The notes: a model not told the origin generated them from the sequence alone. A stretch of DNA of 64,000 bases from a virus (IMGVR_UViG_3300012007_000015:1-64000); one strand, 5' to 3'. Shown: positions 8,939 through 62,008, counted from the first letter of the stretch. Numbers and translations: made by a program.

Positions 8939-9535
8939 TTAAAGTTTTAGTTTCTTTGTAAACTGGTTTACTTTTGCGAAGCAGTACTTGCCAATCTCCA
9001 CACTCGCCTTGTCGGAGTATTTGAATACCGTGACCGTACTGTCTTCATCCGCATCATCGATGATAACCTTGCTGTCATCGAAGAGATATACACTTGGGCT
9101 GTTGTAGCCGTCAAGTGACAGATGTATCGTGGAGCCGTTACTGACGTATATCCTGCCGCACTTGGTCTTCGGCATCGTAATGTCGCAGTCGCACCACATC
9201 ATCGCAATAACGTCCGACTTAATATCGAACGGCTTGCGGTGGCCCACGTACAATTCGTATGTGTACCCCTTGACACCTTCAACGTCAGAGAACACCCTGT
9301 TTCCGTTGATGAACTCTCCGAAGTTGTTTACGATGTAGTCCTTCGTGACTCCCATCTTAGTATAGCAGGCGTGAGATAGGAACGGGAGCGACTGTTGGCT
9401 TAGCGCAAGCCTTACCAACATTTCCTTGTCGTTCCCACAAGACCTCCATGCAGCTTTGTAGTCGCTGCACAGAGGTTGTCCGCTTATGTTGCCCAAAAGG
9501 GCGTTCTTTTGAAAATCCAATAATTCTTTATCCAT
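8939..9535 (-). CDS. Tail-operon hypothetical protein
   Basis: 198-aa ORF directly after the tape measure gene, with a beta-rich C-terminus. Confidence 0.6.
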   Translation of the reverse strand: MDKELLDFQKNALLGNISGQPLCSDYKAAWRSCGNDKEMLVRLALSQQSLPFLSHACYTKMGVTKDYIVNNFGEFINGNRVFSDVEGVKGYTYELYVGHRKPFDIKSDVIAMMWCDCDITMPKTKCGRIYVSNGSTIHLSLDGYNSPSVYLFDDSKVIIDDADEDSTVTVFKYSDKASVEIGKYCFAKVNQFTKKLKL

Positions 9536-9540
9536 TTCTG

Positions 9541-22832: not shown

Positions 22833-25649
22833 ATGGCAAAAAAGAGAAACGACATAGTATTGGCTCCGTTGGAGGATGGCAACCAAAAGCATGCCATTCG
22901 CTCCAACGCAGACATTGTCGCGTTCGTCGGGCAAACTGGTTCGGGGAAACAAAACCCCATTGATGAGCCTGTTTTAACGGTCAACGGATGGGTTAAAATG
23001 GGTGATTTGAAGATTGGTGATGAACTATTCTCGCCGCTCAATACAGAACCGTCTTTTGTTACTGGTATTTATCCGCAGGGTGTCAAACCAGTATATAAAG
23101 TAACGACAAGCGACGGTCGTGTTTCTCGCTGCGGACTTGAGCATCTGTGGATGGTTCGTACAGAAAAGCAAGTGGAGAATTGGAGAAAAGGAAAAGGTTC
23201 TGCATACATTAAGACGACAAGAGAAATATTAGACGAATATATTTCCAAGGGAAAGAATATATTCATCCCACTTGCGAGACCTTACGACGGAAAGGAGAAA
23301 GAACTTCCGATTGACCCTTATGTCCTTGGCGTTTGGCTTGGAGATGGTTGTTCACATCATGATTCTTTTGTGATTTCTGGAGACGAAATTGATGTTATAA
23401 AAAAAGTTTCAGACAAACTAAAAACAACGTTTCGTTTTCATAGCAGCGAGAACTATAGCAACATGATACACCAGAACGAAAAAGTCTCTTCCGTCAAAAA
23501 ATATATTAGAGAGTCTGGACTGGATGTGTACTCGCACGAAAGGTTTATCCCAGAAGAGTATCTGCACGCTTCTGTTGAGCAGCGTATGGAACTGTTGAAA
23601 GGATTGATGGATAGCGACGGAAATATTGAAGAAAAGAACCGTTACTCTTTCTCTACGACAAGTCCTAAGTTGAAGCGATGTTTCATTGAACTTTGCAGAG
23701 GACTTGGTTATATCGTCGGAGAAAATAAAGACAGCCGAACACGCTATAAGAGCGGAGAGTGTTGGAAGATAACAATCCAGACGAACGACATAATCTTCAG
23801 CAGCAAGAAGCACCTCGACAAATACCGCGCGAACTTGGAGAAATACAAGAACAAGAATCGTGAGTACAAGCATGACCATGTGCGCATTATAAATATAGAA
23901 TATGTGGGAGACATGGAGTGTCAATGTATAATGGTTTCCAACAGAGACCACTTATACTGCACACATGACTATATTGTGACACATAACACAATTGCTTTAT
24001 ATTACGCCCCGATTGAGTACCTTGCCATGAATGACAACGCCAAGGCTGTGTGCTTCATGCGTAACGTCGCGGACTTCTGGGCCACTGGTAAGGTCGCGGA
24101 CACTGTTAAGCAGATGTATCCGCTCGTTGACAGAGGCGCAGGAAAGAAGCAGCCGCATGACCCGATAGGAGAAATCCGAAGAGGACAGGAGGACATGGGC
24201 GTCAAGTTCTACAACGGCTCCGAGATTAAGTTCCAGCAGCTTGACAACGAGAGTCCTATCGTGATTGATAAGATTACGAAGGGTCTGCAGGCGAAGATAC
24301 TTATTTTCGATGAGTGCAACAAGTTCCTCTGGAGAACCATATCGGCATTCTTCCCGCGCATGCGTTCCGATTCTTCTGGTAAGGCACAGGTGTTCCTTGC
24401 ACAGAACCCAGAGCGCGAGTGCTTCATGCGACAGATGTGTGGAAAGGGAGAGCACGGCGGAGGATGGATTAATGACGACGGCTCTATAGACAAGGATATG
24501 GACGGCGTAGTCATGTTCGTGTTCTTTCCAGACGGTGACTACGAAAGAGCAGTCTGGGGCCGAACTAAGAAAGAAGTATACGAGAAAGGCAAGGAGTGTA
24601 TAGACAAGCTGCTCGCAATAGACCAAGATATGTCCTACGAGGACTTTATCCTGTCGTTCGCCTTCTTTACGTTCGATGTGAGAGACAACAAGAAGATGCT
24701 CTCAAAGAACAAGAAGTATCGCGGTCTTGCAGCTAACTCGACGACAGCAAAGTCTTCCTATGAGAACAACTGGAACTACTCTCTCGAAGACGAAAAGGGA
24801 GATGCCGAAGACCTCGCGAACGTACAGCTAAGTAATACGGACGTTGAGCGCATGTTCAGACATATAGAGATTCCCTACGAGAGCCAGTGCATCAAGAAGT
24901 TCATGACTGTAGACTATGCTACAACGGGATTCGATAACTTTGTAATGAAGTATTGGGAGCTGTGGGAGCACTACGGCTTTATCTGCAAGGATATTCAGTT
25001 TTCCATGAAGAACTCCAATAAGGAGGCCGTGATTATGATGATTGACTTCCGCGACCGTCATGGACTTCAGGAAAAGGAGATGATTATCGACGTGCAGGGC
25101 TCCACGTTCCTGCGCGACTGCTTCCCAAGAGCCATCAACTTTGCAGGTGCATCACAGCCTACGGAGCGCTCGAAGGCCCAGTACAAGACTCGCAAAGACG
25201 AGGCTGCACACCTCTGCATGGAGATGATACAGGCTGGACTCATACACTACGACCCGAAGCTCGCAGATGCAAGGTACAATCACCAGAATATGAAGAGAGA
25301 GGGTGCGACCACCGTACTCCGCCACATGAAGTTCGAGAGCGTCATCTTCCAGTTTGGAAAGACACCGAACGGGCGCATCACCATGCTCGACAAGGAGAAA
25401 CAGAAAACCTTCCTCAAAGGTATGTCTCCAGACCTGTTCGACAATGTCATCATGCTTTGCGGAGGTCTGTATCACACGTGCTATAATATGCTGCGTGACG
25501 ATGCAGGCATAATGCGCAAGAAGATGCAGGCGGAAGACATGCTCAGCCTCCTCAACGTAAACGGACGCGAAGAGGTTGACACGAGAATACACCGTGTTAG
25601 GAAGATTAGGAATGCAAGCGAAATATTAAACGTTTTAAGTACGATATAA
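22833..25649 (+). CDS. terL: Terminase large subunit with intein
   Basis: Walker A GQTGSGK/T split by an intein, Walker B ILIFDE, AQNP coupling motif, nuclease acidic motifs (VDYATTGFD, PDLFD); upstream of the portal gene. Confidence 0.92.
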   Translation: MAKKRNDIVLAPLEDGNQKHAIRSNADIVAFVGQTGSGKQNPIDEPVLTVNGWVKMGDLKIGDELFSPLNTEPSFVTGIYPQGVKPVYKVTTSDGRVSRCGLEHLWMVRTEKQVENWRKGKGSAYIKTTREILDEYISKGKNIFIPLARPYDGKEKELPIDPYVLGVWLGDGCSHHDSFVISGDEIDVIKKVSDKLKTTFRFHSSENYSNMIHQNEKVSSVKKYIRESGLDVYSHERFIPEEYLHASVEQRMELLKGLMDSDGNIEEKNRYSFSTTSPKLKRCFIELCRGLGYIVGENKDSRTRYKSGECWKITIQTNDIIFSSKKHLDKYRANLEKYKNKNREYKHDHVRIINIEYVGDMECQCIMVSNRDHLYCTHDYIVTHNTIALYYAPIEYLAMNDNAKAVCFMRNVADFWATGKVADTVKQMYPLVDRGAGKKQPHDPIGEIRRGQEDMGVKFYNGSEIKFQQLDNESPIVIDKITKGLQAKILIFDECNKFLWRTISAFFPRMRSDSSGKAQVFLAQNPERECFMRQMCGKGEHGGGWINDDGSIDKDMDGVVMFVFFPDGDYERAVWGRTKKEVYEKGKECIDKLLAIDQDMSYEDFILSFAFFTFDVRDNKKMLSKNKKYRGLAANSTTAKSSYENNWNYSLEDEKGDAEDLANVQLSNTDVERMFRHIEIPYESQCIKKFMTVDYATTGFDNFVMKYWELWEHYGFICKDIQFSMKNSNKEAVIMMIDFRDRHGLQEKEMIIDVQGSTFLRDCFPRAINFAGASQPTERSKAQYKTRKDEAAHLCMEMIQAGLIHYDPKLADARYNHQNMKREGATTVLRHMKFESVIFQFGKTPNGRITMLDKEKQKTFLKGMSPDLFDNVIMLCGGLYHTCYNMLRDDAGIMRKKMQAEDMLSLLNVNGREEVDTRIHRVRKIRNASEILNVLSTI
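22950..23987 (+). mobile_element. Intein (346 aa) with LAGLIDADG homing endonuclease, class-3-like
   Basis: Starts QNPIDEPVLTVNGW; block B CGLEHLW; LAGLIDADG motifs YVLGVWLGDG and LLKGLMDSDG; block F QCIMV; ends IVTHN followed by Thr. AT-richer than the exteins. Confidence 0.92.
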
Positions 25650-27174: not shown

Positions 27175-27552
27175 ATGGGCTGGATGGAATTTGTACTTGG
27201 CATGGCAACACTTGTACTCGGTACTGGCTGGCTGTTTACATACCACTCTCACAAGAAGAAAGAAGAGGGCGAGGCAACACAATCTGAGGCAAACGGTTGG
27301 CTCAAGCAGCAGGAGGTGTACCAACACACCATTGAAGACCTTGAGAAAGCCTGTGACTTCATACGTAACGACCGTAACCAGCTACGTGAGGAGAACTCGC
27401 GACTTATCTCTGAGAACAACGAGCTAAGACGCACAGTGGTCGAGTTGCAAAACACTGTATTCGACCTCAAGAAAGAGGTTTCACGCCTCGGAAGACGTGT
27501 CGACGCCATGAGTGAGAAAAAGAAGAAAAACGACAAAAATACGGAAGGATAA
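27175..27552 (+). CDS. Holin-like membrane protein (one TM plus coiled coil)
   Basis: N-terminal TM segment, basic C-terminus, stop overlaps the lysozyme start. Confidence 0.5.
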   Translation: MGWMEFVLGMATLVLGTGWLFTYHSHKKKEEGEATQSEANGWLKQQEVYQHTIEDLEKACDFIRNDRNQLREENSRLISENNELRRTVVELQNTVFDLKKEVSRLGRRVDAMSEKKKKNDKNTEG

Positions 27553-28031
27553 TGACGCTTATGAAGACATCCCAGAAAGGCATTGACCTTATCAAGAAGT
27601 TCGAGGGCTGCAAGTTGTACGCCTATCGTGATTCTGTTGGCATCCCGACCGTTGGCTATGGCCACACAAGCGGCGTCAAGATGGGCATGGCTATCACGCA
27701 GGCACAGGCAGACAAGTTCCTCGCCGAAGACCTTGCTGCAGTTGAGTCCGTCCTTAACAAGATGAACATTAACTTCAAGCAGAATCAGTTCGATGCTCTG
27801 GCCGCTTGGATATTCAACCTTGGCGAGGGTAAGTTCAAGGGTTCCACGTTGTACAAGAAAATCGTTGCACGCGCCACTGACCTTGAAATCACTGACCAGA
27901 TAGTCCGATGGATTAACGCTGGCGGCAAGCCGTCTCTTGGATTAAAGCGCCGCCGCGTCGCAGAGGCCAACATGTTCTTGGGACGAGACGAATATCGTAT
28001 TGATGCACAAGGAAATATAAACAAGAAATAA
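27552..28031 (+). CDS. Endolysin, GH24 phage lysozyme
   Basis: FEGCKLYAYRDSVGIPTVGYGHT carries the E-x8-D-x5-T triad; also QNQFDAL...FNLG and GLKRRRVAE. Confidence 0.93.
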   Translation: MTLMKTSQKGIDLIKKFEGCKLYAYRDSVGIPTVGYGHTSGVKMGMAITQAQADKFLAEDLAAVESVLNKMNINFKQNQFDALAAWIFNLGEGKFKGSTLYKKIVARATDLEITDQIVRWINAGGKPSLGLKRRRVAEANMFLGRDEYRIDAQGNINKK

Positions 28032-30041: not shown

Positions 30042-30500
30042 ATGACCAAGGAAGAGTATTTTGTAGAAGTATGGCAGAGGAGTATGCGCAACCAAGGATG
30101 CTTATCGGTGGTTGCGTGTATCCTCGTCGCCTTTATTCTGATGCTGTCTTCCTGTGCCACTAAGACAAGAATCGAGTATCGTGACCGCGTTGTAGACCAC
30201 TATAATACGGTCACGGTACACGATACCTTAAAGATACATGATAAGGACAGTGTGTATCATCTTATAAGGGTTGTAAACGATACGGTTTATGATACCAAGG
30301 TAATTGAGAAGACAAGATGGAGAGACCACGTTATCACAAAGACAGACACCTGTTTTCGAGATAGCGTGCAGACCGAATATAAGGAAACCGTTAAAGAGGT
30401 TGTAAAATTTCCAAAGACATACTGGTACGCAGTAGGGTTTTCGATACTTTTCTTTATCCTCGTTGCGTACAAGCTTTACGTATTTATAAAAAGATTCTAA
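30042..30500 (+). CDS. Unimolecular spanin-like lipoprotein
   Basis: Lipobox LSSC after a hydrophobic signal, beta-rich periplasmic part, C-terminal TM followed by a basic tail. Confidence 0.75.
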   Translation: MTKEEYFVEVWQRSMRNQGCLSVVACILVAFILMLSSCATKTRIEYRDRVVDHYNTVTVHDTLKIHDKDSVYHLIRVVNDTVYDTKVIEKTRWRDHVITKTDTCFRDSVQTEYKETVKEVVKFPKTYWYAVGFSILFFILVAYKLYVFIKRF

Positions 30501-33500
30501 TGAAGATTCCCTACGACATATACAAGACGATGATTACACGGGGCCTTACGCCTGTGGAGTACATCGAGAACACTGGCAACGACGCTTATATAGATACAGG
30601 CATAAAGCCTACAGAGATTCACTCGCTGTACGTAGAGTACAAAGCCTCCGAGATTACGTACGACAGGCCGATGTATATTGCTGGTGCCCTGCGAACAGTT
30701 AGTGCCGACACGTTCGCCATAGTGTTCAAGGATGCAAGACATGAGGACTCGTACGCAAGATTCGGAAGCGAGTCGTACGAGTATGCCGAGTGCGACACAA
30801 ACAAGCATTCTGTCATGCTTGACGACACGAAGCTGTACTATGACGGAGAGCTTGTCAATACATTCTCTGGTCAGAAGGGTACGTGCAGGTACAACATCTT
30901 CCTGTTCCACGTAAACTACTATGGCTCGGCGCTTAGTGACAGATGTCTTGTCGGTAGGATTTACAGAGCGAGACTTTGCGATAATGCAGGGAACTCTGTA
31001 AAGGACTACTATCCATGTATAAACGCGAGCGGAGATGTTGGTATGTTCGATGCTGTCAGCAAGGCTTTTGTAGGTTCTGCAAACAGCGATACGTTTACCG
31101 CTGGTAATGTCGTAAGGGATGTATACGACGAGCTTCCGATTATCGCAAACGGCTCTTCGTTCCACAACCTCGCGCTGAGAAAGTATACCGTTGACTCGGT
31201 TGTTATGTCTCTCGGCGACAAGATTACTGGCGATATTGTTTGGAAGGACACTTCTCTCGTATTCTCCATGCAGGAGTATGTCGTCTATGCAGGAACGAAA
31301 TACGTTCTTGTGAATCCGCCTACGGTTGTCCGTGAGGGAATGGTAGCCGACAATAGCGAACTAAAGGGTGCTGCAAAGTATTCCTTAACGTTCTATCATC
31401 CGATGTACATGCTCGGTAATTTCCCGTTTACGGATATTGCTGTTACTGATGACGAGCAGAAATACCTGTCAGAGAGTAAGACCTTCTCGTGGATAGGCAC
31501 ACTGTTTGACTTCATCGCAAAGCTAAACGCCAACCTGCAGGGTACGGAATGGGTCGTAAGGGCCAACATTCCTCATTATGAGCAGGATGGCGAGACTGTG
31601 ACCTCTCAGTGGCAAAAAGCATCCACGACAAGTGAAGTCATGTCGTTCGACAAGAACTACATCAGCGAGGCCCTAAAGAAAGCCTACGACGAATGGGAGA
31701 TTCCGTTTACCATAACCGACGCAACGAATATCGCAGGCAAGAAGTATGTCATCGAGTTCGGCCTTCCGTCGCAGGAGATATACGGAGATGATGGTGTAAC
31801 ACCATACGTATTCCGATTCGGGCAGGGCGTGGGATTGAAGAACAACTCCAAGACCCCTCGAAACAACAAAATAATTACCCGTATTGTGGGTTGTGGCGCA
31901 GAGCGCAACGTGCCATACGGCTATCCGCAGATTCCTTGGTATGGAGACCAGACATGGAACTACACGATAAACAACGCCAGCGGTATGCAGCCGATAACGG
32001 TAGGCGGCGTGACGATACAGGCGATGTCCTATCCCATCTACGACGGTGTTGTAGGCGGTCAGCCAACCAAGCTTATAAAGCATCCGTTTACACGCAAGAC
32101 CCTTATGCCGTCCATATACGGACAGACCTTGTTCAACAAGGTAAGCCCATATCTTTCCGATGGTACGGCAAACCCAAACTACAATCCGAATACTACACTC
32201 GTTGACTACTACGACGCCATTGACGAGCTTGGCGGTATCCAGTATCCTAACAACATCAATCCTTTGGCACCTTCTGTAGAGCACCATCAGTTCGAGAAGG
32301 TATACCCGAAGCTTGGTGACAAGACGTTGGTAAACGTGCTTCCGTATGACGATAAGACGTATATCAGCTGGAATACCTTTTACTCAGAGATAAATTCGTA
32401 TATCGCAAACTCAAACAACGACAACGAAAAATCGTTTCTTAACAGCTGCAGAGAGGCTGTGTATCACTGCGACTATGGGCTGAGTTTCGACATCGAAAGT
32501 CGAGGAGGAAGCTATACTGGCAAATCTGTAGGACAGTCATACAAATATGGTGGCGGCTGGTGGGTTGATGTCTCATACACGTCTGACAACGTAAACTTCA
32601 AGAGGAATGTTTATCTCGGCTCATATAATCCTTCTAAAGTCGTTGAATGGGACGACACCTATGACTCCGAGAAAGACGAGTACAAGCAGTCTTATTTCAA
32701 GATGCGGCTTCCGTTGCTCGACTTCGACCTCTATGCGTGTGCTATCTACAACGAGGAGATGAAGATAAACATGCGTAGTGGTGCTTGTATCGGCTGCTCG
32801 TTCCCCATACAGATAGACTGGGACGATTACAAGGCCAACTTCTACACTCCAGACGGAACATTCGCTCCAGACGGAGAGCAGAGAAACACTATAAAGTATC
32901 CGAAGTCGAATGTGTCTCAAATCGCGGTTGTTTGCAAGAAAGAGGTTGAAACGTTCGGAACCCTTATGCCGAACATATACCAGCAGCCTGCTACGGGAGA
33001 CCTGTTTACAATACTCGGTATAAACCTACCTAATTCCTATATCAGCTCCGCACAGACAGAGCTGGACGGCGACATGAAGGAGTACATGCTGGAGAACAAC
33101 GTACACTACTTCGACTATCCTTTGAAGTTTGACGAACTCTTCCTCAAGAAAAGGCAGGCCATACTCGACCAAATCAAGAATAACTGCATCGTTCGGTTCG
33201 AGTCTGACAGCACGGAGATTGCCTTGTATATAAAGCAGATTACAAAGAAATACGGCGAAAGCCCGCTGCCGAAGTACGACATCACCCTCGCAGACGACAT
33301 TGAGATTGTACTCAACTCTATAGGACAGGTCACTGACGATGTTAGCAGGATGCGTGTACAGATGTCTGACATCCAGAAGTACTATTCCGAGTCTATTATA
33401 CGCGAGATAAAGAACAAACTGAGCCGTATAGAGGATGACATCTGCAGTGGCCGCATTACGTTCCAGCAGGGCCTGTCATCTATCGGAGAGATAATCCTGT

Positions 33501-36055
33501 ATGGCGGTATACGTAGCGATATTTTCGTGAGCGGACTGTATACAGGACGAGGATGGAAGGTCGATGAACTTGGCAACGCAGAGTTTGAGTCTCTTCGTGT
33601 ACGCTCTTTCCTTGAAATCGTAGAGCTTCTTGTCAACCGCATGCAGGCACAGGAAGGTGATACCATGTTTACGGACAACGACGTGATAGACAAGGTCACT
33701 CCGTACGACCTTACGGCAGTCTCTGCTTTAGATTCTGATAATCCAAGTCTATACGGGTGGTACGAACTCGTCGATAACGAATATGTGCTTTCTGGCGACA
33801 GGCGAGTAGTCTCTGGGAAAACATACTACAAGGCGTCTTCGTTAATTCTTTCCCTCAAGGAAAAGTACAACGGATACTACACGTCTCAGAAACTCGGCAA
33901 CATTCTTAGGGGTGTCATTAATATTCAGGCGGCTGTTGACTCTGGACTTGTTAAAGACCAAGACACCCGAGATATGGTCTTCTATACATCTTGGATGAAG
34001 GTCATACAGACTGCTACCGAGTCTACAGGCTCTGGTAATCCAACTCTGACTACCAACCAGATTCGGGTTGAGCTGTACTACGACGACGAAGTTCCTGGTG
34101 GCAGAAACTTTGCTCCTTGTGAGCTGATGACCATAGCACGCTGGGGAAATATTCTTGACCCACAAGAGCAGGGCATCTCTGATGCCGAGAAGAGGCGCAG
34201 GCTTGCTCTGTGCTCGTCATTCTATATCAGTACTACCGACGGACGTATAACCAAGCTCAACAACGTTCGGGCACCGATACTGACCGACGACAACTATGGA
34301 ACTACGCTCGGCATCCTTCCTGAGTTTGTGCAGCAGTATACCTCCATCGCCCCTCGTATCGCAGACGGGCAAGACTACCTGTATGCGCAGGGTGTCGTCG
34401 TGCAGGACTTCATAAAGATTGACCGCAATGGCAATGTGGTTTCCGAGGGCAACACCGAAAAGGAAAAGACAATATACAAGTGGGCGGACACAAAGCCTGC
34501 AACACCGACAGGAACAAACATTCCTCCTGCAGGGTGGTCTGAATCTCCCAACGTAACATTCCCAGACATCGAGCTTGACGGCCCAGAGCCAGAAGGCCAA
34601 TACACAAAGGTCGTGCAGAGAATAGACTTCTATGCTACGGAAGGCAACGCAACACTCACACTGAATGCCGCTGTGTCAAGTGAGGCCGACTATGATTTCC
34701 TTCTTATCGGAAAACTCGATAAGGATGATTTATATAACCTTCCTGCAGTTGATATTTGGAATGACGTTGACAACACTGGTGATTACTATGTACTCGCTTT
34801 GAGCGGAGAAAACTCACGTTCGTACACGTTTAGCGGTATATCTGCTGGAAGTCATCACGTATACGTCGCATTTGTCAGCGACAGAAACACAATACATGGA
34901 GCAAACAACGGAATCATCTCTTACGTTAGCTCAACCAATGTTACCCCTGCCAAGCACCTGTGGGTTAGCAAGGGAGACCTTGTCAACGGTGCTCTTTCTG
35001 GAAGCTGGAGCGAACCGATACAAGAGAACGGTGTAGACGGACAAGACGGACAAGACGGACAAGATGGCGCGAGGGGTAAGGTCGGTAGATTCTTCTACTA
35101 TGCAGGAGACTTCTCTCTGCAAGACCAAACAAACTACGTCATCAATGACGCTCAGGCTCCATACTTCTCCCATGTGGAGGACGGTCAGACATTGTACCAT
35201 GTGTTCAACCCAGAAACAAATCCGTCTGGTGGCACGATGACAACCTCGCAGATGTGGGCCGCAAGTAGTAATAACTGGAACAATGCTCCGTGGGAGGTGA
35301 TGACCAACGACTTCAAGTACATTATCACGGAAGCGTTATTCGCAAACTTCGCACTGCTTGGTAGCTTTGTCGTAAACCTCGACTTCTTCTTGTCGCAGTA
35401 CGGAACGCTGATAAGCAACAGTGGTGGCACAATCACAAGGACTACGATTGACGCCACAAACTATCATACTCTCGTTGATGGTGCTTTGCCGTACACATAC
35501 TTTGATGCGAGCGACCCAGAGGGAGAAACCGACCCTGCTTCTGGCGGTCATAAGTTCGTTCCGTCACTGTATCAGAATGCCAAGACAGGAAGAATTGTCG
35601 GCGATAATTGCAAGTTTATAAATATGGTCGCTAAAGGCGGCACATTCGATGGTATAACTGCAACCAACGCAGACATATCTGGAATACTAAGGTCTCCAGT
35701 CGTTTATTCCCCATTTTACGAAGTTGGAGGCGGCGATGTTGTCGATTTGAATGCGTCACTTGTTGCCACAAGATTTACGGAAGCAGGAATCGCTGGTATT
35801 GCAACTATCTATCTTCCTGCAGCGAGGGATTGTAACGGACTTGAGTTGAACTTCTTTTCTCCAAGGTTTACAAGGAGTGTGATGACAACAATAAAGATAA
35901 AGGCGAGTGGGAGTGATTTTTTATTGATACCAGACGGAAGTGGATATTATTCGGACTGCCCGAATGGGGCTGTAGTAGACATAAACATTTTTGTAACTAT
36001 AGTTTCTATCGGAAACAACTGGGTTCTGCTAAACGGAACTGTGACACCTTTATAA
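30500..36055 (+). CDS. Large tail tip / central fibre protein (1851 aa)
   Basis: N-terminal EYIENTGNDAYIDTG lectin-like domain, FRFGQGVGLK...KIITRIVGCG hub-like motif, LRVRSFLEIVELLVNRMQAQEGD motif, and a short collagen-like GQD repeat. Confidence 0.8.
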   Translation: MKIPYDIYKTMITRGLTPVEYIENTGNDAYIDTGIKPTEIHSLYVEYKASEITYDRPMYIAGALRTVSADTFAIVFKDARHEDSYARFGSESYEYAECDTNKHSVMLDDTKLYYDGELVNTFSGQKGTCRYNIFLFHVNYYGSALSDRCLVGRIYRARLCDNAGNSVKDYYPCINASGDVGMFDAVSKAFVGSANSDTFTAGNVVRDVYDELPIIANGSSFHNLALRKYTVDSVVMSLGDKITGDIVWKDTSLVFSMQEYVVYAGTKYVLVNPPTVVREGMVADNSELKGAAKYSLTFYHPMYMLGNFPFTDIAVTDDEQKYLSESKTFSWIGTLFDFIAKLNANLQGTEWVVRANIPHYEQDGETVTSQWQKASTTSEVMSFDKNYISEALKKAYDEWEIPFTITDATNIAGKKYVIEFGLPSQEIYGDDGVTPYVFRFGQGVGLKNNSKTPRNNKIITRIVGCGAERNVPYGYPQIPWYGDQTWNYTINNASGMQPITVGGVTIQAMSYPIYDGVVGGQPTKLIKHPFTRKTLMPSIYGQTLFNKVSPYLSDGTANPNYNPNTTLVDYYDAIDELGGIQYPNNINPLAPSVEHHQFEKVYPKLGDKTLVNVLPYDDKTYISWNTFYSEINSYIANSNNDNEKSFLNSCREAVYHCDYGLSFDIESRGGSYTGKSVGQSYKYGGGWWVDVSYTSDNVNFKRNVYLGSYNPSKVVEWDDTYDSEKDEYKQSYFKMRLPLLDFDLYACAIYNEEMKINMRSGACIGCSFPIQIDWDDYKANFYTPDGTFAPDGEQRNTIKYPKSNVSQIAVVCKKEVETFGTLMPNIYQQPATGDLFTILGINLPNSYISSAQTELDGDMKEYMLENNVHYFDYPLKFDELFLKKRQAILDQIKNNCIVRFESDSTEIALYIKQITKKYGESPLPKYDITLADDIEIVLNSIGQVTDDVSRMRVQMSDIQKYYSESIIREIKNKLSRIEDDICSGRITFQQGLSSIGEIILYGGIRSDIFVSGLYTGRGWKVDELGNAEFESLRVRSFLEIVELLVNRMQAQEGDTMFTDNDVIDKVTPYDLTAVSALDSDNPSLYGWYELVDNEYVLSGDRRVVSGKTYYKASSLILSLKEKYNGYYTSQKLGNILRGVINIQAAVDSGLVKDQDTRDMVFYTSWMKVIQTATESTGSGNPTLTTNQIRVELYYDDEVPGGRNFAPCELMTIARWGNILDPQEQGISDAEKRRRLALCSSFYISTTDGRITKLNNVRAPILTDDNYGTTLGILPEFVQQYTSIAPRIADGQDYLYAQGVVVQDFIKIDRNGNVVSEGNTEKEKTIYKWADTKPATPTGTNIPPAGWSESPNVTFPDIELDGPEPEGQYTKVVQRIDFYATEGNATLTLNAAVSSEADYDFLLIGKLDKDDLYNLPAVDIWNDVDNTGDYYVLALSGENSRSYTFSGISAGSHHVYVAFVSDRNTIHGANNGIISYVSSTNVTPAKHLWVSKGDLVNGALSGSWSEPIQENGVDGQDGQDGQDGARGKVGRFFYYAGDFSLQDQTNYVINDAQAPYFSHVEDGQTLYHVFNPETNPSGGTMTTSQMWAASSNNWNNAPWEVMTNDFKYIITEALFANFALLGSFVVNLDFFLSQYGTLISNSGGTITRTTIDATNYHTLVDGALPYTYFDASDPEGETDPASGGHKFVPSLYQNAKTGRIVGDNCKFINMVAKGGTFDGITATNADISGILRSPVVYSPFYEVGGGDVVDLNASLVATRFTEAGIAGIATIYLPAARDCNGLELNFFSPRFTRSVMTTIKIKASGSDFLLIPDGSGYYSDCPNGAVVDINIFVTIVSIGNNWVLLNGTVTPL
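35036..35062 (+). repeat. 9-bp tandem repeat (GACGGACAA x3) encoding a collagen-like DGQ run
   Basis: Read directly from the sequence. Confidence 0.85.
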
Positions 36056-36067: not shown

Positions 36068-36493
36068 ATGAAGATAATATTCAACGATTACATACCCTTT
36101 AAGGGTTTCAGCGCGATAACGGTATATCCGTTTGTATTCGTGCGCGACGATGCCAAGATTAATAACAGGGTTATCAACCACGAGAACATCCATGCTCATC
36201 AGCAGGTGGAGACAATCTGTCTGACTGCAGCGGTTGTTGTTTGCGGTATCATCACGAGGATTCTGTCTCCGTGGTTCCTGCTTGCAATACCGATTTCGTA
36301 CTATGTGTTCTACGTGCTTGAATACGCCATCAGGTATATTCTGTACGGATTCAACCATGACGCAGCGTACAAAAACATCTCGTCCGAGCAGGAGGCGTAC
36401 CTCAACGACTTCGACCTGACGTACCTTGACAGGAGAAAGAGATTTGATAATCTAAAGTATCTGTTCAAGCGTACATACAGGCCGAAACAGTAA
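36068..36493 (+). CDS. Membrane-associated HExxH (zincin-like) protein
   Basis: HENIHAHQQ, a hydrophobic segment, then EQEAY. Confidence 0.6.
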   Translation: MKIIFNDYIPFKGFSAITVYPFVFVRDDAKINNRVINHENIHAHQQVETICLTAAVVVCGIITRILSPWFLLAIPISYYVFYVLEYAIRYILYGFNHDAAYKNISSEQEAYLNDFDLTYLDRRKRFDNLKYLFKRTYRPKQ

Positions 36494-36512: not shown

Positions 36513-36544
36513 AAACGCCTCGGTGAAAATCGGGGCGTTTTTTT
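36513..36544 (+). terminator. Intrinsic terminator ending the terminase-tail operon
   Basis: AAACGCCTCG...CGGGGCGTTT stem followed by a T-run. Confidence 0.8.
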
Positions 36545-36702
36545 ATGCAAAAAAAATCGCAAAGTTTCTTGTAACTAATTCAAGTTGAAACGGTTACAAG
36601 AAATTAAAGTTCCAAAAAACAGAAACAAAAATTATTTTGCCCCGCGAAAGCCTTTAAACAAAGGGCTTTAGAAAGTTGCATACGGACTTAAAAACGTTAG
36701 GT

Positions 36703-36748
36703 TTTGAACTACTTTCTTTGGTGCGTAACTTTGCTGCCGTAACGTTAC
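36703..36748 (+). promoter_or_regulatory. Promoter with the palindrome GTAACGTTAC at the start site
   Basis: TTTG (36703-36706), 19 nt, TAACTTTG (36726-36733), palindrome at 36739-36748. Confidence 0.75.
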
Positions 36749-36802: not shown

Positions 36803-37729
36803 ATGGCAGAGATTTATCAACTCCCAAGTGAAAATTCGGGAAACAATGGGGCAAACATCCCCTTCTCAATTCCCATCGGCTTCGGCGGCATGGGTAACAA
36901 CGGGTTCGGTTTCGGAAACGGAATGAACGGCATATACGACCTTCTTGGCGTAGCCATTATTGCATCATTGTTTGGATGGAACAATGGTGGCTTCGGCGGT
37001 TTTGGCGGTGGTTTCGGTGGCGCTGGTGGCGCAGGCTTTATCAGCAACCAACTGAACAATGATAGCGGTCGCGAGTTAATTATGAACGCTATTACCGCAC
37101 AGGGCGAGGCAGCACGCACAGCCATTCAGACTATGAGTACAATGGTTGGTCAAGACTTCAACCTCTTAAACGCAGGTATTCAGTCTGCTCAGAACACTCT
37201 GAATCAGATTGCCAACCAGCTTGGTATGTCTACCTTGCAGATGATTAACGCTGTACAGTCTGGTGACGCTAACGTAATTAGCACCTTGCAGAGCTGTTGC
37301 TGTCAGACGCAGAAGCAGATTATGGAACAGGGCTACCAGTCTCAGATTGCAACCCTCAACCAGACCAATCAGCTTGGCTCGCAGGCAGACCGCAACACCA
37401 ATTCGTTGCTGAACGCAATCAACGCACAGACCGTTGCAATGAACGACCAGTTCTGCGCAGCCCGTGAGCGTGATATGCAGGCTAAGATTGACACGCAGGC
37501 TGACATCATCACTCAGCTTCGTGGTCAAATAGACAATCAGGCACAGACAAACCAAATTATTGGATACGTCAACAGCGTTATTGCACCTTTGCAGAAAACT
37601 GTGACCGAGATTGCTGACAAGCAATTGCCGACTGTGCCTGTGGTTTATCCGAACATCCAAGCCATCAACAACACTCCGTACATGGGTGGTTTCTACGGCA
37701 ACGGGTGGAACGGTAATGTTGTATTTTAA
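36803..37729 (+). CDS. Gly-rich membrane/coiled-coil protein with a CCC motif, function unknown
   Basis: Gly/Phe-rich N-terminus, hydrophobic LLGVAIIASLFGW, long Q/N/A-rich helix, LQSCCCQTQ. Confidence 0.85.
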   Translation: MAEIYQLPSENSGNNGANIPFSIPIGFGGMGNNGFGFGNGMNGIYDLLGVAIIASLFGWNNGGFGGFGGGFGGAGGAGFISNQLNNDSGRELIMNAITAQGEAARTAIQTMSTMVGQDFNLLNAGIQSAQNTLNQIANQLGMSTLQMINAVQSGDANVISTLQSCCCQTQKQIMEQGYQSQIATLNQTNQLGSQADRNTNSLLNAINAQTVAMNDQFCAARERDMQAKIDTQADIITQLRGQIDNQAQTNQIIGYVNSVIAPLQKTVTEIADKQLPTVPVVYPNIQAINNTPYMGGFYGNGWNGNVVF

Positions 37730-37748
37730 CGCATAAGGAGGCTGGAAT

Positions 37749-38090
37749 ATGGGATGCGCTAATATAACAACTAACGCTGGAGGAATACCGTATCTGAGTA
37801 CGTCCAACGTGACGATTTCAACTACGTCGGTAGACCTCGCACTCGGCTGGAATCGGAGGGGTTTACCTCCTGTGGGTTTCTTTACCGTGAGAGTTGCTGA
37901 CGCTATACCTGCAGACACCACGACAACGCTGCCTGTTACGGTAACATTTAACGGTGTTACGCGTAACCTGACTCTGTTCGATGGAACACAGGTGACAGCA
38001 GCAGAAATCCTCAACGGCACAGGAGCCTTGCTTATCTTCAACGACAGGTTCAACAATCTGCTCCAGCTGATGAGCCGTACAACCGTCTAA
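37749..38090 (+). CDS. Beta-rich hypothetical protein
   Basis: 113 aa, T/V-rich, second gene of the operon. Confidence 0.75.
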   Translation: MGCANITTNAGGIPYLSTSNVTISTTSVDLALGWNRRGLPPVGFFTVRVADAIPADTTTTLPVTVTFNGVTRNLTLFDGTQVTAAEILNGTGALLIFNDRFNNLLQLMSRTTV

Positions 38091-38114
38091 TCACAAATCA
38101 AAAAAGTAAACATT

Positions 38115-38651
38115 ATGGACTTCAATTCATTAGGTAACGGTAATCCGTTCTACGTTCTCCGTAAGGGAGAAAAGCCATACCTTGAAGTTGGTGTGGTCAA
38201 GTCAAAGTCTCAGCCGAGGGCCCAGTATCCGATGCAGACTCCGAATCTCGGTATCGGCATGCAGATGCAACAGGTCGTCGATGTGACGGCAACCATCAAT
38301 GGCAAGGACGAGACATTCCAGAATCTTCCCATAAACGTTGAGATAGCATCAAGGGGTAACGACACGTTCAGCGGTTCGAGGGAGGCGATGCTGCAGGCCG
38401 TAGACGCTATGCTGCAGACTTCCAAGAAGGCCATCGAACAGGTTCCTTATCACAAGGGTGTCATCGCAGAGTCCGAGAAGATGCTCGAATTACTCAATCC
38501 TCAGTATGCGGAGAACAAGCAGAACGCGAGGGTTATCCAGTCCTTGCAGGAGAAGCAGAAGGCACAGGAGCAGCAGCTGGCAGAGCTAAAGGCCCAGAAC
38601 AGCGAAATGCTCACGATACTGCGACAGTTGAACGGTGGAGCCGCTACCTAA
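38115..38651 (+). CDS. Hypothetical protein with a C-terminal coiled coil
   Basis: 178 aa; beta-rich N-terminus and Q/E/K-rich helix. Confidence 0.75.
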   Translation: MDFNSLGNGNPFYVLRKGEKPYLEVGVVKSKSQPRAQYPMQTPNLGIGMQMQQVVDVTATINGKDETFQNLPINVEIASRGNDTFSGSREAMLQAVDAMLQTSKKAIEQVPYHKGVIAESEKMLELLNPQYAENKQNARVIQSLQEKQKAQEQQLAELKAQNSEMLTILRQLNGGAAT

Positions 38652-38687
38652 TGGTAGGAGCCCTGTAAACAAAGAAAGGAAAGTAAT

Positions 38688-38906
38688 ATGGGATATATTT
38701 TTGTAGACAGAGATGGCGATGGAATCCGCAACGAAATGCGGAGGAATATGCGCGAGTCCATGAAACATGACGGCTACAGTCCGATGATGCGCGGTGATTC
38801 CGAGAAGGAGCACTGGTATCGTATGGGCTACAAGGAAGGCTGGCATGACCACGAGGACGAGATGGATATGCGTCGCGCCCGTGACAGCAGAGGCAGGTTC
38901 ATCTGA
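38688..38906 (+). CDS. Small Met/Arg-rich protein ending RRARDSRGRFI
   Basis: 72-aa low-complexity charged ORF. Confidence 0.7.
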   Translation: MGYIFVDRDGDGIRNEMRRNMRESMKHDGYSPMMRGDSEKEHWYRMGYKEGWHDHEDEMDMRRARDSRGRFI

Positions 38907-39061
38907 TTTTCAAAATAAGGTTGGGGCGTCTTCGGATTCTCCGACCTTATTTAGAAAACAAGAAATGAAAAGTAGGTGTTTCCGCTTATTTTATATCAAA
39001 TTATTTAAATAAGCAGGCTAAAACATCCTTAATGTTCAACTTAAAAAGAAAACAAGAAAAT

Positions 39062-39460
39062 ATGAAATACTTAATGTCGGAAGAAGAAGCGGCCTATATG
39101 GACTTGTATCATGGTCATTTCAGCAGGAAGCTTGCTGCGTGGGCCATCGGGAACATGGTCATGGTAGACCCAGCTACGGGAAAGGAGAAGAGCGTCACCA
39201 TGCACTCTGTAGATGATGTTATGGAAATCCTTAAAACGAACGGCGTCAAGATTCCCGTCGAGAGCAAGATAGATGCTTGGTACCTTTACCACATGACACT
39301 TGCTGATTATCCAGAGTCACTTACTACGGACAAACAGAGGTCTATTTTTGTAGAAGAGACTATCTGCGACCCAGACGGAGAAGACACAAACATCCTCGCA
39401 TGCTTCGTGGCCAAGATGTGCAACAAAGGTGTGCCTATTTACTGGGAGGAGTTTGCATGA
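39062..39460 (+). CDS. Hypothetical protein
   Basis: MKYLMSEEE... ORF, coupled to the next gene. Confidence 0.7.
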   Translation: MKYLMSEEEAAYMDLYHGHFSRKLAAWAIGNMVMVDPATGKEKSVTMHSVDDVMEILKTNGVKIPVESKIDAWYLYHMTLADYPESLTTDKQRSIFVEETICDPDGEDTNILACFVAKMCNKGVPIYWEEFA

Positions 39461-39846
39461 AACAGGCTTATCTCAAATTTCCTCGTAACGAGTGGGGTGT
39501 CGTTGTAGTATGCGACTTTGATACGGACTTGGAGTATGATGAGATGTATGAGCAGCTCAGAAGCTTCGGAATGAGCCAGTACAACATCAAGAAAGCGTTG
39601 AACATACTTTCCGCATACAACACTGGTATGCACGTAAGCAATAACACGCTCAAGATGTCGGCCATATACATCTCTAATACGACAACGCCGAGCGAATGGT
39701 GGGACACTGCGGCCCATGAGCTTGCCCATACCGTAGTATCCATTATAGACCACTACAATGTGCCGTATTACTCTGAGGACGCGGCATATCTTGCTGGATT
39801 CTTAATGAAGCAGCTCGTGGAGCAAGTTGCGGAGCCATGCAAATAA
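39457..39846 (+). CDS. HExxH metallopeptidase-like protein
   Basis: AAHELAH followed by SEDAAYLAGF; ATGA overlap with the previous gene. Confidence 0.65.
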   Translation: MKQAYLKFPRNEWGVVVVCDFDTDLEYDEMYEQLRSFGMSQYNIKKALNILSAYNTGMHVSNNTLKMSAIYISNTTTPSEWWDTAAHELAHTVVSIIDHYNVPYYSEDAAYLAGFLMKQLVEQVAEPCK

Positions 39847-39870
39847 TTAACCAAACAAAACAGTAAAACT

Positions 39871-40215
39871 ATGGAAAGAGAAAAGCTATTGAAGGAGTAC
39901 GAGGCCACACTTGAGAGCCTTATCGAGAAGACGAAGTTCGTTTATTCTGAGGAGTTCTATACACTCGATGAAATCGAAAAACAGAAGTACACCAAGGACA
40001 AGCTGGCGACAGAGGGTCATCTTGGCACACTCTGTAATATCCTGTGGGGTAAGAATCAGTTCTCCATGGGCGGCATGTCAGACCTGTTTGCCTTGGGTAT
40101 CATCGGCTCTATGTTTGGAGGCGGTTGGGGCAATACTCCGTTACCCTCATTTGGTAGCGAAGGAACCCTCAAGAACGAGCTGAATGTTGGCGCCGATGAG
40201 CAAGAACGCAAATAA
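39871..40215 (+). CDS. Hypothetical protein
   Basis: 114-aa ORF with a hydrophobic Gly-rich segment near the C-terminus. Confidence 0.6.
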   Translation: MEREKLLKEYEATLESLIEKTKFVYSEEFYTLDEIEKQKYTKDKLATEGHLGTLCNILWGKNQFSMGGMSDLFALGIIGSMFGGGWGNTPLPSFGSEGTLKNELNVGADEQERK

Positions 40216-40270
40216 AGCCCGACAAGAGCGTTTCTTGGTGTCGGCGGATAAGTTCAGGGAGGATATGAAA

Positions 40271-40310
40271 AATCCCGTCAGAGGCAAATGAAATGGCCAA
40301 AGACGGGATT
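40271..40310. terminator. Stem-loop between convergent transcription units
   Basis: AATCCCGTC...GACGGGATT inverted repeat. Confidence 0.5.
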
Positions 40311-40330
40311 CTCCGTGTCGTTATGCCTCG

Positions 40331-40687
40331 TTAGATATGTAGTTCTTCCTTGATAAAATCCAAAAGGTTAAAAGCGGATTGTTTGTACGGCATCTTGTTA
40401 TCCAGCCTATTTTTCCGTGGAACCAAGAATACTCCGTACTCTATTCCGTTACACAAGTTGTATCGCGAGTCTATCTTCTCCTCTGACCACTGGTACTTCT
40501 CAAACGCTTCCGCGATTGAGATGTTTTCATGAACCGCCTGTTGCAGGTAAAGGAATGCGACCGTCTTCTTCTTTTTCTTTGCAATCTGTTCTGCGACGTC
40601 GTCCAGCAGAACATTCATCAGTTTATTAATCTGTTCTTTCGGATACACCGCATCAAGTATGTCTCGTAATTGTTCTTGTTTGCTCAT
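40331..40687 (-). CDS. Hypothetical protein
   Basis: 118-aa ORF in the leftward operon. Confidence 0.6.
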   Translation of the reverse strand: MSKQEQLRDILDAVYPKEQINKLMNVLLDDVAEQIAKKKKKTVAFLYLQQAVHENISIAEAFEKYQWSEEKIDSRYNLCNGIEYGVFLVPRKNRLDNKMPYKQSAFNLLDFIKEELHI

Positions 40688-41498: not shown

Positions 41499-43034
41499 TT
41501 AAAGGTGGTTTAATCTTTTTGTTAATATGTTTTCTATATTGTCAAATTCGGTATAAGGTATCTCGATAAGTTTTATCTTGTGTTCCTTACAATATTGGCG
41601 AACAGCATTATCCCTTTTTTGCTGGTGTGCAAATCTCTCTTCGTTGTCAACAAATCCAGTAGGACGATAATGTTGTTCTCCTTGGTATTCTATTGCAACA
41701 TTTAATGACGGAATAAAAAAGTCAAGATACATTCTTTTGTTTTCGCAAAACAAAGATTCATTATTTATCTTGTACTGCGTTTCGTAGTTTATACCAAATT
41801 TGTCTAAGCATAACATAACCTTTTCTTCGCCCCTTGATATACTACAACGTGGACAACCACTCCCCTGTAAATGAGCGTTTGCGATTTGTTGAAAATCACC
41901 ATGCTTTCGACAAGTTATAGTCACGGGCATATTGTCCTTTACGTATTCAGTATGCTCGTAAGAATACCTATCCCCATGTACCTTTTTTGCTTTTTCTATA
42001 AACATTTCTGTGGTATGTCTTAACGATAATGATTGTTCTAACAATGCACAATTCGGGCATCCACTACCCATTAAATGCGAATTTGGTGCTTGAAAAAAGT
42101 GCGTTCCGCATTTTTTGCAAATAATTTCAACAGGCTCTCTTGAATATTTGTAATCGACAAGCGAATAGTCATATTTGTCTCCATGTTTTTGTCTTGCTAA
42201 GTCAATAAAACGGCTGGTTGTATATTTGCCAAAACCGTCACATTGTGGACATCCGTAACCTCGCAAGAAATACTTCGGTTTTACAGAGAAATCTCCATGC
42301 TCTTTGCATACGACTATGATTGGCGTGTTGACATTTATGAAATCTGCTTTTGACATATCAAACCTATCTCCGTACAATTCGTTTACACGACGCAAAAACT
42401 CTTCTTTTGACATAGCCTTGGAATCATGCAGCAAATCGTATGCACATTGCGGGCACCCATTACCATTTAAGTGATTTATTGCTTTTTGACGAAACACTCC
42501 GTGAGAATGGCATATAATATCAACAAATGATGAAGCACCATTAAAGTTTTCTTTTGTAATCAAAGAGTAATCATATCTATCACCGTGTATTTCTTTGGCA
42601 CGTTCGATAAAGTTTTCATAAGTTATTCTAAAACTTTCTTTCATGCACTCCTTACATCCACACCCATGCAGGTGACTTTGTGCGTTCTGCAAAAAATCCC
42701 CGTGTTTTGGGCATGTAATACACACCTTTGTGCGCTTATTTACATACTCTGTCTTATCGTAATTATATTTATCACCATGAACAATCCTTGCCTGTGCAAC
42801 AAATTCATCGGTTGTTCTTCTTTGATGATTTGCACGTTCTTCTGTTCTGCATTTTATACACCCATGTCCCAGCAAATGATTGGTTGGCGTTTGCCAAAAA
42901 CTACCATGTTTAGGACAAATAATCTCTACTTCTACATGGCAACCTTTGTATTCAACCTTTGAATAGTCGTACTTATTACCATGCACTTTTATTGCATCGG
43001 CAATAAATTGTTCTTTTGTCTTTTTCCCTTTCAT
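41499..43034 (-). CDS. Repeat-containing endonuclease (six DUF723-like Zn repeats plus a PD-(D/E)xK/DUF559-like nuclease)
   Basis: Six units of FI.KA..VHGDKYDYS...C.KHG.F.Q....HL.G.GC..C; C-terminal RMYLDFFIPSLNVAIEYQGEQHY; AT-rich. Confidence 0.85.
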   Translation of the reverse strand: MKGKKTKEQFIADAIKVHGNKYDYSKVEYKGCHVEVEIICPKHGSFWQTPTNHLLGHGCIKCRTEERANHQRRTTDEFVAQARIVHGDKYNYDKTEYVNKRTKVCITCPKHGDFLQNAQSHLHGCGCKECMKESFRITYENFIERAKEIHGDRYDYSLITKENFNGASSFVDIICHSHGVFRQKAINHLNGNGCPQCAYDLLHDSKAMSKEEFLRRVNELYGDRFDMSKADFINVNTPIIVVCKEHGDFSVKPKYFLRGYGCPQCDGFGKYTTSRFIDLARQKHGDKYDYSLVDYKYSREPVEIICKKCGTHFFQAPNSHLMGSGCPNCALLEQSLSLRHTTEMFIEKAKKVHGDRYSYEHTEYVKDNMPVTITCRKHGDFQQIANAHLQGSGCPRCSISRGEEKVMLCLDKFGINYETQYKINNESLFCENKRMYLDFFIPSLNVAIEYQGEQHYRPTGFVDNEERFAHQQKRDNAVRQYCKEHKIKLIEIPYTEFDNIENILTKRLNHL

Positions 43035-46994: not shown

Positions 46995-47026
46995 CAAAGG
47001 TAATATATAAATTTTGAATATGCAAA
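46995..47026 (-). promoter_or_regulatory. Promoter for the tRNA-dnaN operon with a palindromic -33 region
   Basis: Minus strand TTTGCATATTCAAA (47026-47013) and TACCTTTG (47002-46995). Confidence 0.75.
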
Positions 47027-50726: not shown

Positions 50727-50757
50727 CAAAGTTACGAATTACTTTGTATATGCCAAA
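50727..50757 (-). promoter_or_regulatory. Promoter with a palindromic -33 region
   Basis: Minus strand TTTGGCATATACAAA, then TAACTTTG (50734-50727). Confidence 0.7.
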
Positions 50758-54434: not shown

Positions 54435-54466
54435 CAAAGTTACAACTTTCGCTTGGAATATGCAAA
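54435..54466 (-). promoter_or_regulatory. Promoter of the ssb-yqaJ-recT operon
   Basis: Minus strand TTTGCATATTCCAA and TAACTTTG, only 4 nt before the ATG. Confidence 0.75.
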
Positions 54467-61977: not shown

Positions 61978-62008
61978 CAAAGATAACTATTTAGTTTGAA
62001 TATTCAAA
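61978..62008 (-). promoter_or_regulatory. Promoter with the perfect palindrome TTTGAATATTCAAA
   Basis: Palindrome at 61995-62008; TATCTTTG at 61985-61978. Confidence 0.8.

Follow-up and report, generated by a model that had tools for sequence, protein, structure and literature searches.

A seven-gene cassette in a Bacteroidales phage genome

We examined a 64 kb stretch of viral DNA (IMGVR_UViG_3300012007_000015:1-64000, hereafter the window) out of an 80,926-bp virus record that is rated complete by CheckV, and found at positions 36803-40215 a cassette of seven co-oriented genes on the + strand, which we call g1 to g7 (Table 1). The source is a Bacteroidales phage that is not itself crAss-like. 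The cassette is a separately transcribed unit, served by a promoter of host type, insulated by a terminator and containing an internal hairpin, and the self-contained seven-gene transcription unit proposed in a preliminary description of this DNA is borne out by the seven open reading frames (ORFs), the terminator and the promoter. The gene coordinates given there stand for the existence of all seven ORFs and are revised at two starts. The family alignment moves the start of g6 from 39400 to 39457 (MKQAYLKF), where an ATGA overlap joins it to the stop of g5, and g5 itself probably begins at 39062 (MKYLMSE), where its family alignment begins.

The terminator closes the upstream late operon, which runs from terminase to fibre, and insulates the cassette from it. 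The promoter is a perfect match to the two-box Bacteroides consensus. The hairpin between g4 and g5 is likely to be an attenuator or stabiliser that divides the operon into g1-g4 and g5-g7. At its 3' end the cassette meets a convergent junction, the next gene lying at 40331-40687 on the minus strand.

Table 1. Features of the cassette (positions in the window) and second g6-type copies in related phage loci (positions in each locus)
Feature	Coordinates	Strand	Details
Intrinsic terminator	36513..36547	+	12-bp stem 36513-36540, loop 4, then U7; -17.9 kcal/mol, z -3.4
Bacteroides-type promoter	36703..36733	+	TTTG-N19-TAACTTTG; perfect motif, ~70 nt before g1
g1, lead protein, 308 aa	36803..37729	+	phrog_16490, 6e-33
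g2, 113 aa	37749..38090	+	phrog_31654; 22/22 aligned members match this PHROG alone
g3, 178 aa	38115..38651	+	phrog_28898
g4, 72 aa, Arg/Met/Tyr/Gly/Asp-rich peptide ending RDSRGRFI	38688..38906	+	18-member alignment
Hairpin between g4 and g5	38907..38958	+	-25.2 kcal/mol, z -5.4; 0/200 shuffles as stable; weak U-run
g5, DUF7841	39032..39460	+	PF25223, 2e-10; phrog_38431
g6, zincin-like metallopeptidase (predicted), 129 aa, HELAH	39457..39846	+	family alignment, 27 sequences
g7, optional, 114 aa	39871..40215	+	family alignment
Hairpins in convergent intergenic region	40217..40327	.	-38.4 kcal/mol over 121 nt, z -2.8
Second g6-type copy, L008	12603..12998	-	
Second g6-type copy, L009	12224..12613	-	
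Second g6-type copy, L014	12930..13325	-	
Second g6-type copy, L020	12062..12463	-	
Second g6-type copy, L037	10983..11411	-	
Second g6-type copy, L051	12394..12795	-	

Recurrence and mobility of the cassette

We find that Bacteroidales phages carry the cassette as a horizontally mobile, self-sufficient accessory module whose gene order is fixed. At the nucleotide level, a blastn search of the cassette against 50,697 phage records returned no match, and its relatives appear at the protein level only. We therefore report protein-level counts over 70 loci, including 65 fetched from IMG/VR, in which six-frame ORFs were searched with iterated profiles of each cassette protein; the IMG/VR loci were gathered by a single-protein g1 search and are biased towards relatives of this g1. 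Across the 70 loci, g2 and g3 were each detected in 65, g5 in 57, g6 in 54, g4 in 39 and g7 in 14, always on the strand of g1 and without any change of order. The core g1-g2-g3-g5-g6 is present, down to 32% g1 identity, in all IMG/VR loci that continue beyond g6 (about 47, counted by reading the locus layouts), and the order in the approximately 47 untruncated IMG/VR loci is g1-g2-g3-(g4)-g5-g6-(g7), where parentheses mark optional genes.

Furthermore, the cassette is present in crAss-like genomes of two families, Suoliviridae and Steigviridae, and the gene order is kept in part in cr272_1, cr52_1 and cr116_1. Relatives of g1 were found in 28 GenBank phage records, mostly of Crassvirales, under the labels 'spike protein/glycoprotein' or 'outer capsid protein/viral fiber', which we attribute to weak coiled-coil matches to fusion proteins. 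The only cultured carrier among the four cassette-bearing phage records inspected is C3_41T2LP (74 kb, host Bacteroides uniformis), which also has the most similar cassette arrangement; profiles detect g1, g3, g5 and g6 there, and two annotated ORFs fill the positions of g2 and g4. In a rumen Bacteroidaceae genome (L080, a 539-kb contig), a six-gene cassette at 6001-9010 is followed by a tyrosine integrase at 9014-10114 and then by host genes. The cassette is thus the last phage element in that contig, the classic position of lysogenic-conversion cargo, with DUF5675 and DUF6549 proteins just upstream. The preliminary description had suggested that such clusters recur in gut and rumen phages, which profile and neighbourhood analysis now verifies together with the fixed order, and its own suggestion of how it might fail, namely that the genes do not co-occur in other genomes, clearly does not hold for the IMG/VR loci, the crAss-like genomes, C3_41T2LP or the rumen prophage.

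The site of the cassette varies among carriers. Here it comes behind the fibre gene, in cr272_1 ahead of the genes for endolysin and terminase, in C3_41T2LP downstream of recombination genes, and in the rumen genome at the end of the prophage. Upon searching the whole crAss001 record with profiles, we detected no g1, DUF7841 or g6. The order in crAss001 is endolysin (gp30), gp31 and capsid gene, and the related cr116_1 has the cassette between the endolysin and a gp31-like gene. As crAss001 is a close relative of a carrier and lacks the cassette, we count the latter among portable accessory units and not as part of the core virion machinery. These observations match what characterises a moron, with an own promoter and terminator, a patchy distribution among related phages and a location at module junctions (the convergent junction here, the prophage end in the rumen genome).

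The lead protein

The g1 product has the layout given in the preliminary description, namely a Gly/Phe-rich N-terminus, a hydrophobic helix, Q/N/A-rich helices and a Cys-Cys-Cys motif (CCC). In order, a disordered Gly/Phe-rich N-tail is followed by a hydrophobic anchor helix (residues 44-58), a Gly-rich hinge, short Q/N/A-rich helices (77-152), a single unbroken helix (156-273) that holds the CCC at 165-167 near its start, and a conserved Pro-rich and Gly/aromatic C-tail. The AlphaFold2 (AF2) model has a mean predicted local distance difference test score (pLDDT) of 66, with disordered ends and pLDDT >90 for residues 200-270, and in this model the long helix of ~118 residues would extend ~17 nm at 0.15 nm per residue. 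The family is large: clustering at 90% identity leaves >6000 clusters of relatives in public metagenomes, and clustering at 50% leaves 501. Among 59 diverse members C167 is invariant, C165 and C166 are conserved in at least 90%, and the C-termini end in aromatic residues.

The hydrophobic helix is far more hydrophobic in most family members than in the g1 of the window. Reading the printed family alignment by eye, we observe an Arg 1-6 residues after this helix in about one third of the sequences, and in the six residues before it Lys or Arg in none and Asp or Glu in several. The positively charged flank of a membrane helix marks its cytoplasmic side (the positive-inside rule), and by this rule the ~250-residue C-terminal part of g1 would be cytoplasmic. 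A cytoplasmic g1 rod fits with g2-g6 having no export signals.

Searches for known relatives of g1 gave no PDB sequence match, no fold beyond coiled-coil noise, no Foldseek match and no named cluster in the ESM Atlas. With VIA-align, the long helix was aligned to the phiX174 H protein (4jpp_A) over 125 residues at Z 7.5 and a root-mean-square deviation of 9.4, a score that dozens of unrelated coiled coils equal and that falls short of the background which the tool gives for long helices. Additionally, g1 has no match to any microvirus family, H/VP2 included (Pfam at E <= 0.1, PHROG at 0.01). The g1 profile matches HA2 and coronavirus S2 HR1 at E 0.003-0.2, which is not significant and comes with no fold match. 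Coiled-coil matches of cassette proteins to HA2/S2, the paramyxovirus F protein and syntaxin were weak, and we judged them to be driven by composition.

The partner proteins

The gene g2 always directly follows g1. Its product has no signal peptide, its Cys at position 3 is not conserved, and the ESM Atlas returned only its own viral clusters. An alternating beta-like pattern in g2 and a helical character of g5 are suggested by the sequences alone. The AF2 model of g3 (pLDDT 86.8) predicts a six-stranded SH3/KOW-like barrel (residues 1-86) followed by two long helices (89-127 and 129-174). Its top PDB match, domain I of EF-P/eIF5A at Z 7.1, is at background level, and its BFVD matches at E <= 0.001 are to uncharacterised viral proteins only, two of them from crAss-like phages. 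The g4 peptide carries the motifs MRxxMRRxMRGGYR, GYRxGYKHGWED and a C-terminal RRxRDSRGRF, with no family match in Pfam or PHROG searches.

Membership of g5 in DUF7841 is clear, at 41.2 bits against a Pfam gathering cut-off of 25.2, and all 24 aligned g5 members match the family at E <= 0.1 (best 1.8e-28). We predict g6 to be a minimal zincin-like metallopeptidase. Across its 27 aligned sequences W13, H87-E88-x-x-H91, E107 and G114 are invariant and a C-terminal CxxC is frequent, so that an HExxH is accompanied by a downstream third ligand, E107, 16 residues after the second His. Sub-threshold Pfam matches were obtained to Peptidase_M78/IrrE in 4 of the 27 members (best 0.0019) and to SprT-like in 5 (best 0.012). 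For the g6 of the window these amount to 12.6 bits (M78) and 12.2 bits (SprT) against cut-offs of 22 and 25.6, and a curated family threshold is not reached. In C3_41T2LP the homologue bears the annotation PolyVal metallopeptidase. Several related phages carry a second g6-type zincin copy on the opposite strand, adjacent to the cassette or up to ~2 kb downstream of it (Table 1); the window holds none. The optional g7 consists of a conserved helical N-domain, a hydrophobic helix with a Gly-rich segment, and an acidic tail. The hydrophobic helices of g1 and g7 look alike by eye in the window, and a common anchor was considered and rejected on a profile comparison.

No signal peptide and no strong hydrophobic segment was found in g2-g6, nor any lipobox or signal peptide in g2-g7. 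PDB sequence and profile searches gave nothing significant for g1, g2, g3, g5 or g6. PADLOC, whose library holds defence proteins and not counter-defence ones, returned no match at E <= 0.01 for any of the seven proteins, and the sole NCBIfam match, that of g3 at 15 bits where the cut-off is 449, is noise. No cassette protein maps to a characterised head, tail, virion, lysis, replication or defence family, which upholds the earlier statement that none is a standard head, tail, lysis or replication gene, and beyond the zincin motif and the Pfam DUF no component maps to a described family. We found no account of DUF7841, C3_41T2LP or T5.077 in the main texts of the literature searched.

A probable distant relative in phage T5

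Upon comparing families, we observed that T5.077 of phage T5 (321 aa, PHROG 8119) is a probable distant homologue of g1. The g1 family aligns to T5.077 in hhalign at 96.7% (E 4e-10), and to an alignment of 12 T5.077 relatives at 97.3% (E 2e-11) over only 50 columns, a short stretch that marks the relation as distant. In hmmscan the CCC region of T5.077 matches the PHROG of g1 at E 0.007. As a control for Gly-rich bias, the g1 and g7 families were compared in the same way and gave 0.7%. The CCC is invariant in both the g1 and the T5.077 families.

T5.077 begins with a charged, His-rich domain and continues with the parts of g1 in their order, namely a Gly-rich stretch, a hydrophobic helix, the hinge GGFGGFG, Q/N/A-rich helices and, in a context like that of g1, the CCC (ECCCE), before a final helix. 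Like g1, it leads a self-contained operon, T5.077-079, with its own annotated promoter (P12) and terminator. The two differ in that the confident alignment covers only 50-114 columns, and in that T5.077 has the extra charged, His-rich N-domain and no Gly/aromatic C-tail. The partners differ as well, since T5.078 is Q-rich and was compared with g3 as a possible counterpart without any relation emerging, T5.079 is a Cys-rich protein of 64 aa, and T5 has neither DUF7841 nor g6. T5.079 (T5 locus 4478-4672) contains four Cys-Cys pairs and ends in SIWF, which recalls the aromatic C-tail of g1 that is absent from T5.077, and it may be a split-off counterpart of that tail.

A genome-wide screen by dCas13d knock-down lists T5.077, T5.078 and T5.079 as of 'unknown function' and all as 'Not Fit' (PMC11879866, supplementary files 8 and 16). 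The adjoining T5.076 is annotated as counteracting retrons (PMC11879866, supplementary file 8).

Timing of expression

In the crAss-like carriers the cassette sits inside the late block. The g1, g3 and g5 homologues of cr272_1 contain in-frame TAG codons, among them those at 9562-9564, 10572-10574 and 10800-10802, and the cassette there is read under the recoded late-gene code of the phage. Alternative coding in crAss-like phages is used mostly for late structural and lysis genes (review, PMC10136315). The in-frame TAG codons and the position in the late block together support late synthesis in crAss-like carriers.

Promoters and genes around the cassette

The window contains 14 instances of the pattern TTTG-N18-21-TAnnTTTG where 1.08 would be expected; most of them stand at operon heads and in the direction of transcription, and one of the 14 promoters precedes the terminase operon. 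At six of them a near-palindromic box, TTTGCATATTCAAA, overlaps the -33 element (392-405, 6403-6416, 47013-47026, 50743-50756, 54453-54466 and 61995-62008), with nine strand-wise matches against 1.1 expected. This box looks like an operator that marks one temporal promoter class. It is absent from the cassette promoter and from the terminase promoter, a weak hint that these two may be regulated alike.

Elsewhere on the + strand, the window holds a large terminase subunit gene with an insertion (22833-25649), a lysozyme-type endolysin gene (27552-28031), and tail genes together with an 1851-aa fibre gene (30500-36055); the minus strand holds an HNH endonuclease gene (41499-43034) and further ORFs. 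The last gene of the late operon (36068-36493) encodes a 141-aa hydrophobic protein with a HENIH motif, assigned to phrog_15610 'protease'. Its relatives lie upstream of the cassette in 9 of the 70 loci at varying distances, and this gene is therefore not part of the cassette. Two further proteins have layouts known from lysis genes. The first (27175-27552, 125 aa) combines an N-terminal membrane helix with a coiled coil, stops at the very position where the endolysin begins and has the 'LysB/FtsL-like lysis regulator' layout annotated in crAss-like genomes. The second (30042-30500, 152 aa), in which a lipoprotein-type signal (…LMLSSC) is paired with a membrane helix at the C-terminus, has the layout of a unimolecular spanin; its gene lies between a leucine-rich repeat protein gene and the fibre gene and has no PHROG or NCBIfam match.

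Possible roles of the cassette

We tentatively favour a role for the cassette in producing a late-made, non-virion, membrane-attached coiled-coil complex that the phage does not need for basic growth and that modulates a late event linked to the envelope, a proposal that we regard as possible rather than probable. In such a complex, g1 would be a single-pass inner-membrane protein whose ~17-nm helix lies in the cytoplasm, with the Cys-Cys-Cys forming a thiol ring, a metal or cross-link site, within an oligomeric coiled coil. The products of g2, g3 and g4, which would come from the same high-output part of the transcript as g1, are predicted to bind the g1 rod. Downstream of the hairpin lies the translationally coupled pair of g5 (DUF7841) and g6 (zincin-like protease), whose output would be reduced should the hairpin act as an attenuator, and this pair would probably process or switch the complex, with g7 as an optional second membrane-anchored helper. 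The weakest step is the event that the complex would modulate, for which lysis timing or the exclusion of a superinfecting phage is our guess. Of the membrane- or particle-associated assembly suggested in the preliminary description, the membrane part is retained as the most economical reading of an anchor followed by a ~17-nm helix, and the particle part is not.

Several observations weigh against this proposal. The hydrophobic segment of g1 in the window is of moderate hydrophobicity (19-residue Kyte-Doolittle mean 1.4) and modelled with low confidence, and the suggested topology of g1 comes from flanking charges read by eye in one alignment. The long charged N-terminal domain of T5.077 fits the opposite topology, and the T5.077 gene belongs to the early region of T5, where the lysis genes of that phage are found as well. 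The genes preceding the cassette in C3_41T2LP are recombination genes of ssb-yqaJ-recT type. The distance between endolysin and cassette is ~9 kb here and ranges from 1.1 to ~39 kb in related genomes, and there is therefore no fixed link to lysis genes. Finally, only 17 of 162 genes were 'Fit' in the T5 screen and the endolysin was also missed (PMC11879866), so the 'Not Fit' result is weak evidence that T5.077-079 are dispensable.

A more specific and more doubtful form of the membrane-attached complex is an array of membrane-anchored ~17-nm coiled-coil rods, joined by cysteine rings at the inner face of the host membrane, which would be an undescribed phage-made cell structure. The low-complexity partners would coat the rods (the Gly/Phe repeats of g1, the Arg/Tyr-rich g4), the array would serve as a platform whose state is set by a dedicated small metalloprotease, and a reduced form of it would be shared with T5.

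The long helix behind a membrane helix would also allow g1 to act as a membrane tether in replication, packaging or particle assembly, its anchored cytoplasmic rod bringing phage DNA or assembly intermediates to the membrane, with g4 and g3 as adaptors for nucleic acid or protein. Protein p16.7 of phage phi29 is laid out in this way, its N-terminal membrane helix being accompanied by a coiled coil and an end that binds DNA. The Arg/Tyr-rich composition of g4, the KOW/SH3-like barrel of g3, the place of the cassette after recombination genes in C3_41T2LP and the position of T5.077 among the replication genes of the T5 early region all agree with a tether. We nevertheless consider it unlikely, as no member belongs to a DNA-binding family (PHROG, Pfam and NCBIfam searches), crAss-like carriers have the cassette in their late block together with TAG-recoded genes, and the likeness to p16.7 is one of architecture only.

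The same architecture recalls lysis accessory proteins. The i-spanin Rz, LysB-FtsL-like regulators and T4 holin T with RI/RIII share a single-pass membrane protein, a long coiled coil and conserved cysteines, and often lie near lysis and late genes. If g1 were a lysis protein proper, it would span the periplasm, cross-linked by disulfides at the CCC and touching the outer membrane with its C-tail, either as a spanin-like fusion device or as an unusually large holin. The hydrophobic helix, the ~17-nm helix and the conserved cysteines would suit an i-spanin, the aromatic family C-termini and the weak HA2/S2 HR1 profile matches point the same way, and the cassette adjoins lysis genes in cr272_1, cr116_1, cr52_1, L009 and perhaps the rumen prophage. 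A spanin was the reading that we considered first, and it was demoted on the phage's own candidates, the missing lipoprotein partner and the variable endolysin distance. This phage has other lysis candidates at 27175-27552 and 30042-30500, crAss001 lyses its host without the cassette, and the cassette differs from lysis accessory proteins in having a protease pair, no lipoprotein partner and no export signals in the partners. Type by type, g1 has the membrane helix and coiled coil of an i-spanin, but the charges flanking the helix in its family would favour a cytoplasmic rod; no lipobox lipoprotein for a two-component spanin is found among g2-g7; g1 has no N-terminal lipoprotein signal with C-terminal membrane helix as in unimolecular spanins of the T1 gp11 type; and with 308 aa, a Gly/aromatic C-terminus and its distance from the endolysin it does not resemble a holin. 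We regard a direct lysis function as quite unlikely.

A role in host takeover or counter-defence would place the enzymes at the centre, the zincin g6, partnered by DUF7841, cleaving a host protein in the manner of IrrE/ImmA-type proteases or of the metallopeptidase domains in polyvalent phage proteins, and g1-g4 acting at the membrane against a membrane-based defence. The likeness of g6 to IrrE/ImmA (Peptidase_M78), SprT-like and PolyVal proteins lies in the invariant HExxH, the downstream Glu, the small size and the weak matches, including the PolyVal label on the C3_41T2LP homologue; it differs from them in matches below the Pfam cut-offs, in the lack of a helix-turn-helix repressor partner and in being a stand-alone protein of 129 aa paired with DUF7841. 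The moron-like position with an own promoter, beside an integrase in the prophage, and the retron-counteracting annotation of T5.076 would suit such a role. It is decidedly improbable all the same, as it leaves four abundant non-enzymatic proteins in fixed order unexplained and T5 has a g1 relative without g5 or g6; the PADLOC searches gave no match, in a library without counter-defence proteins.

Least probable of all is the pilot-tube resemblance raised in the preliminary description, a virion-borne g1 that aids the genome across the envelope as a phiX174 H-like tube or a membrane-inserting ejected protein: g1 and H are alike in size (~300 aa), in a Gly-rich hydrophobic N-part and in a helix of ~120 residues (~118 in g1), but the searches detected no relation in sequence, the match in structure is a generic one, and the genomic setting speaks against a virion role, as podovirus-like crAss phages, other tailed phages and a prophage all carry the portable cassette, crAss001 lacks it, and its probable relative in T5 is an early, non-structural gene.

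Implications

The g1 family occurs in crAss-like phages, which belong to the most abundant viruses found in the human gut. A fixed unit of five to seven genes that moves between unrelated phages must give a benefit that is independent of the type of virion. The cultured phage C3_41T2LP provides a carrier on Bacteroides uniformis, with five of the seven genes detected and the rest deduced from ORF sizes. Furthermore, the homology of g1 and T5.077, if true, shifts the question from uncultured gut phages to one of the most easily handled phage-host pairs, for which deletions, localisation studies and assays of lysis or exclusion are routine. Overall, the cassette is of value for how widely it occurs and for its link to T5, through which it becomes experimentally tractable.

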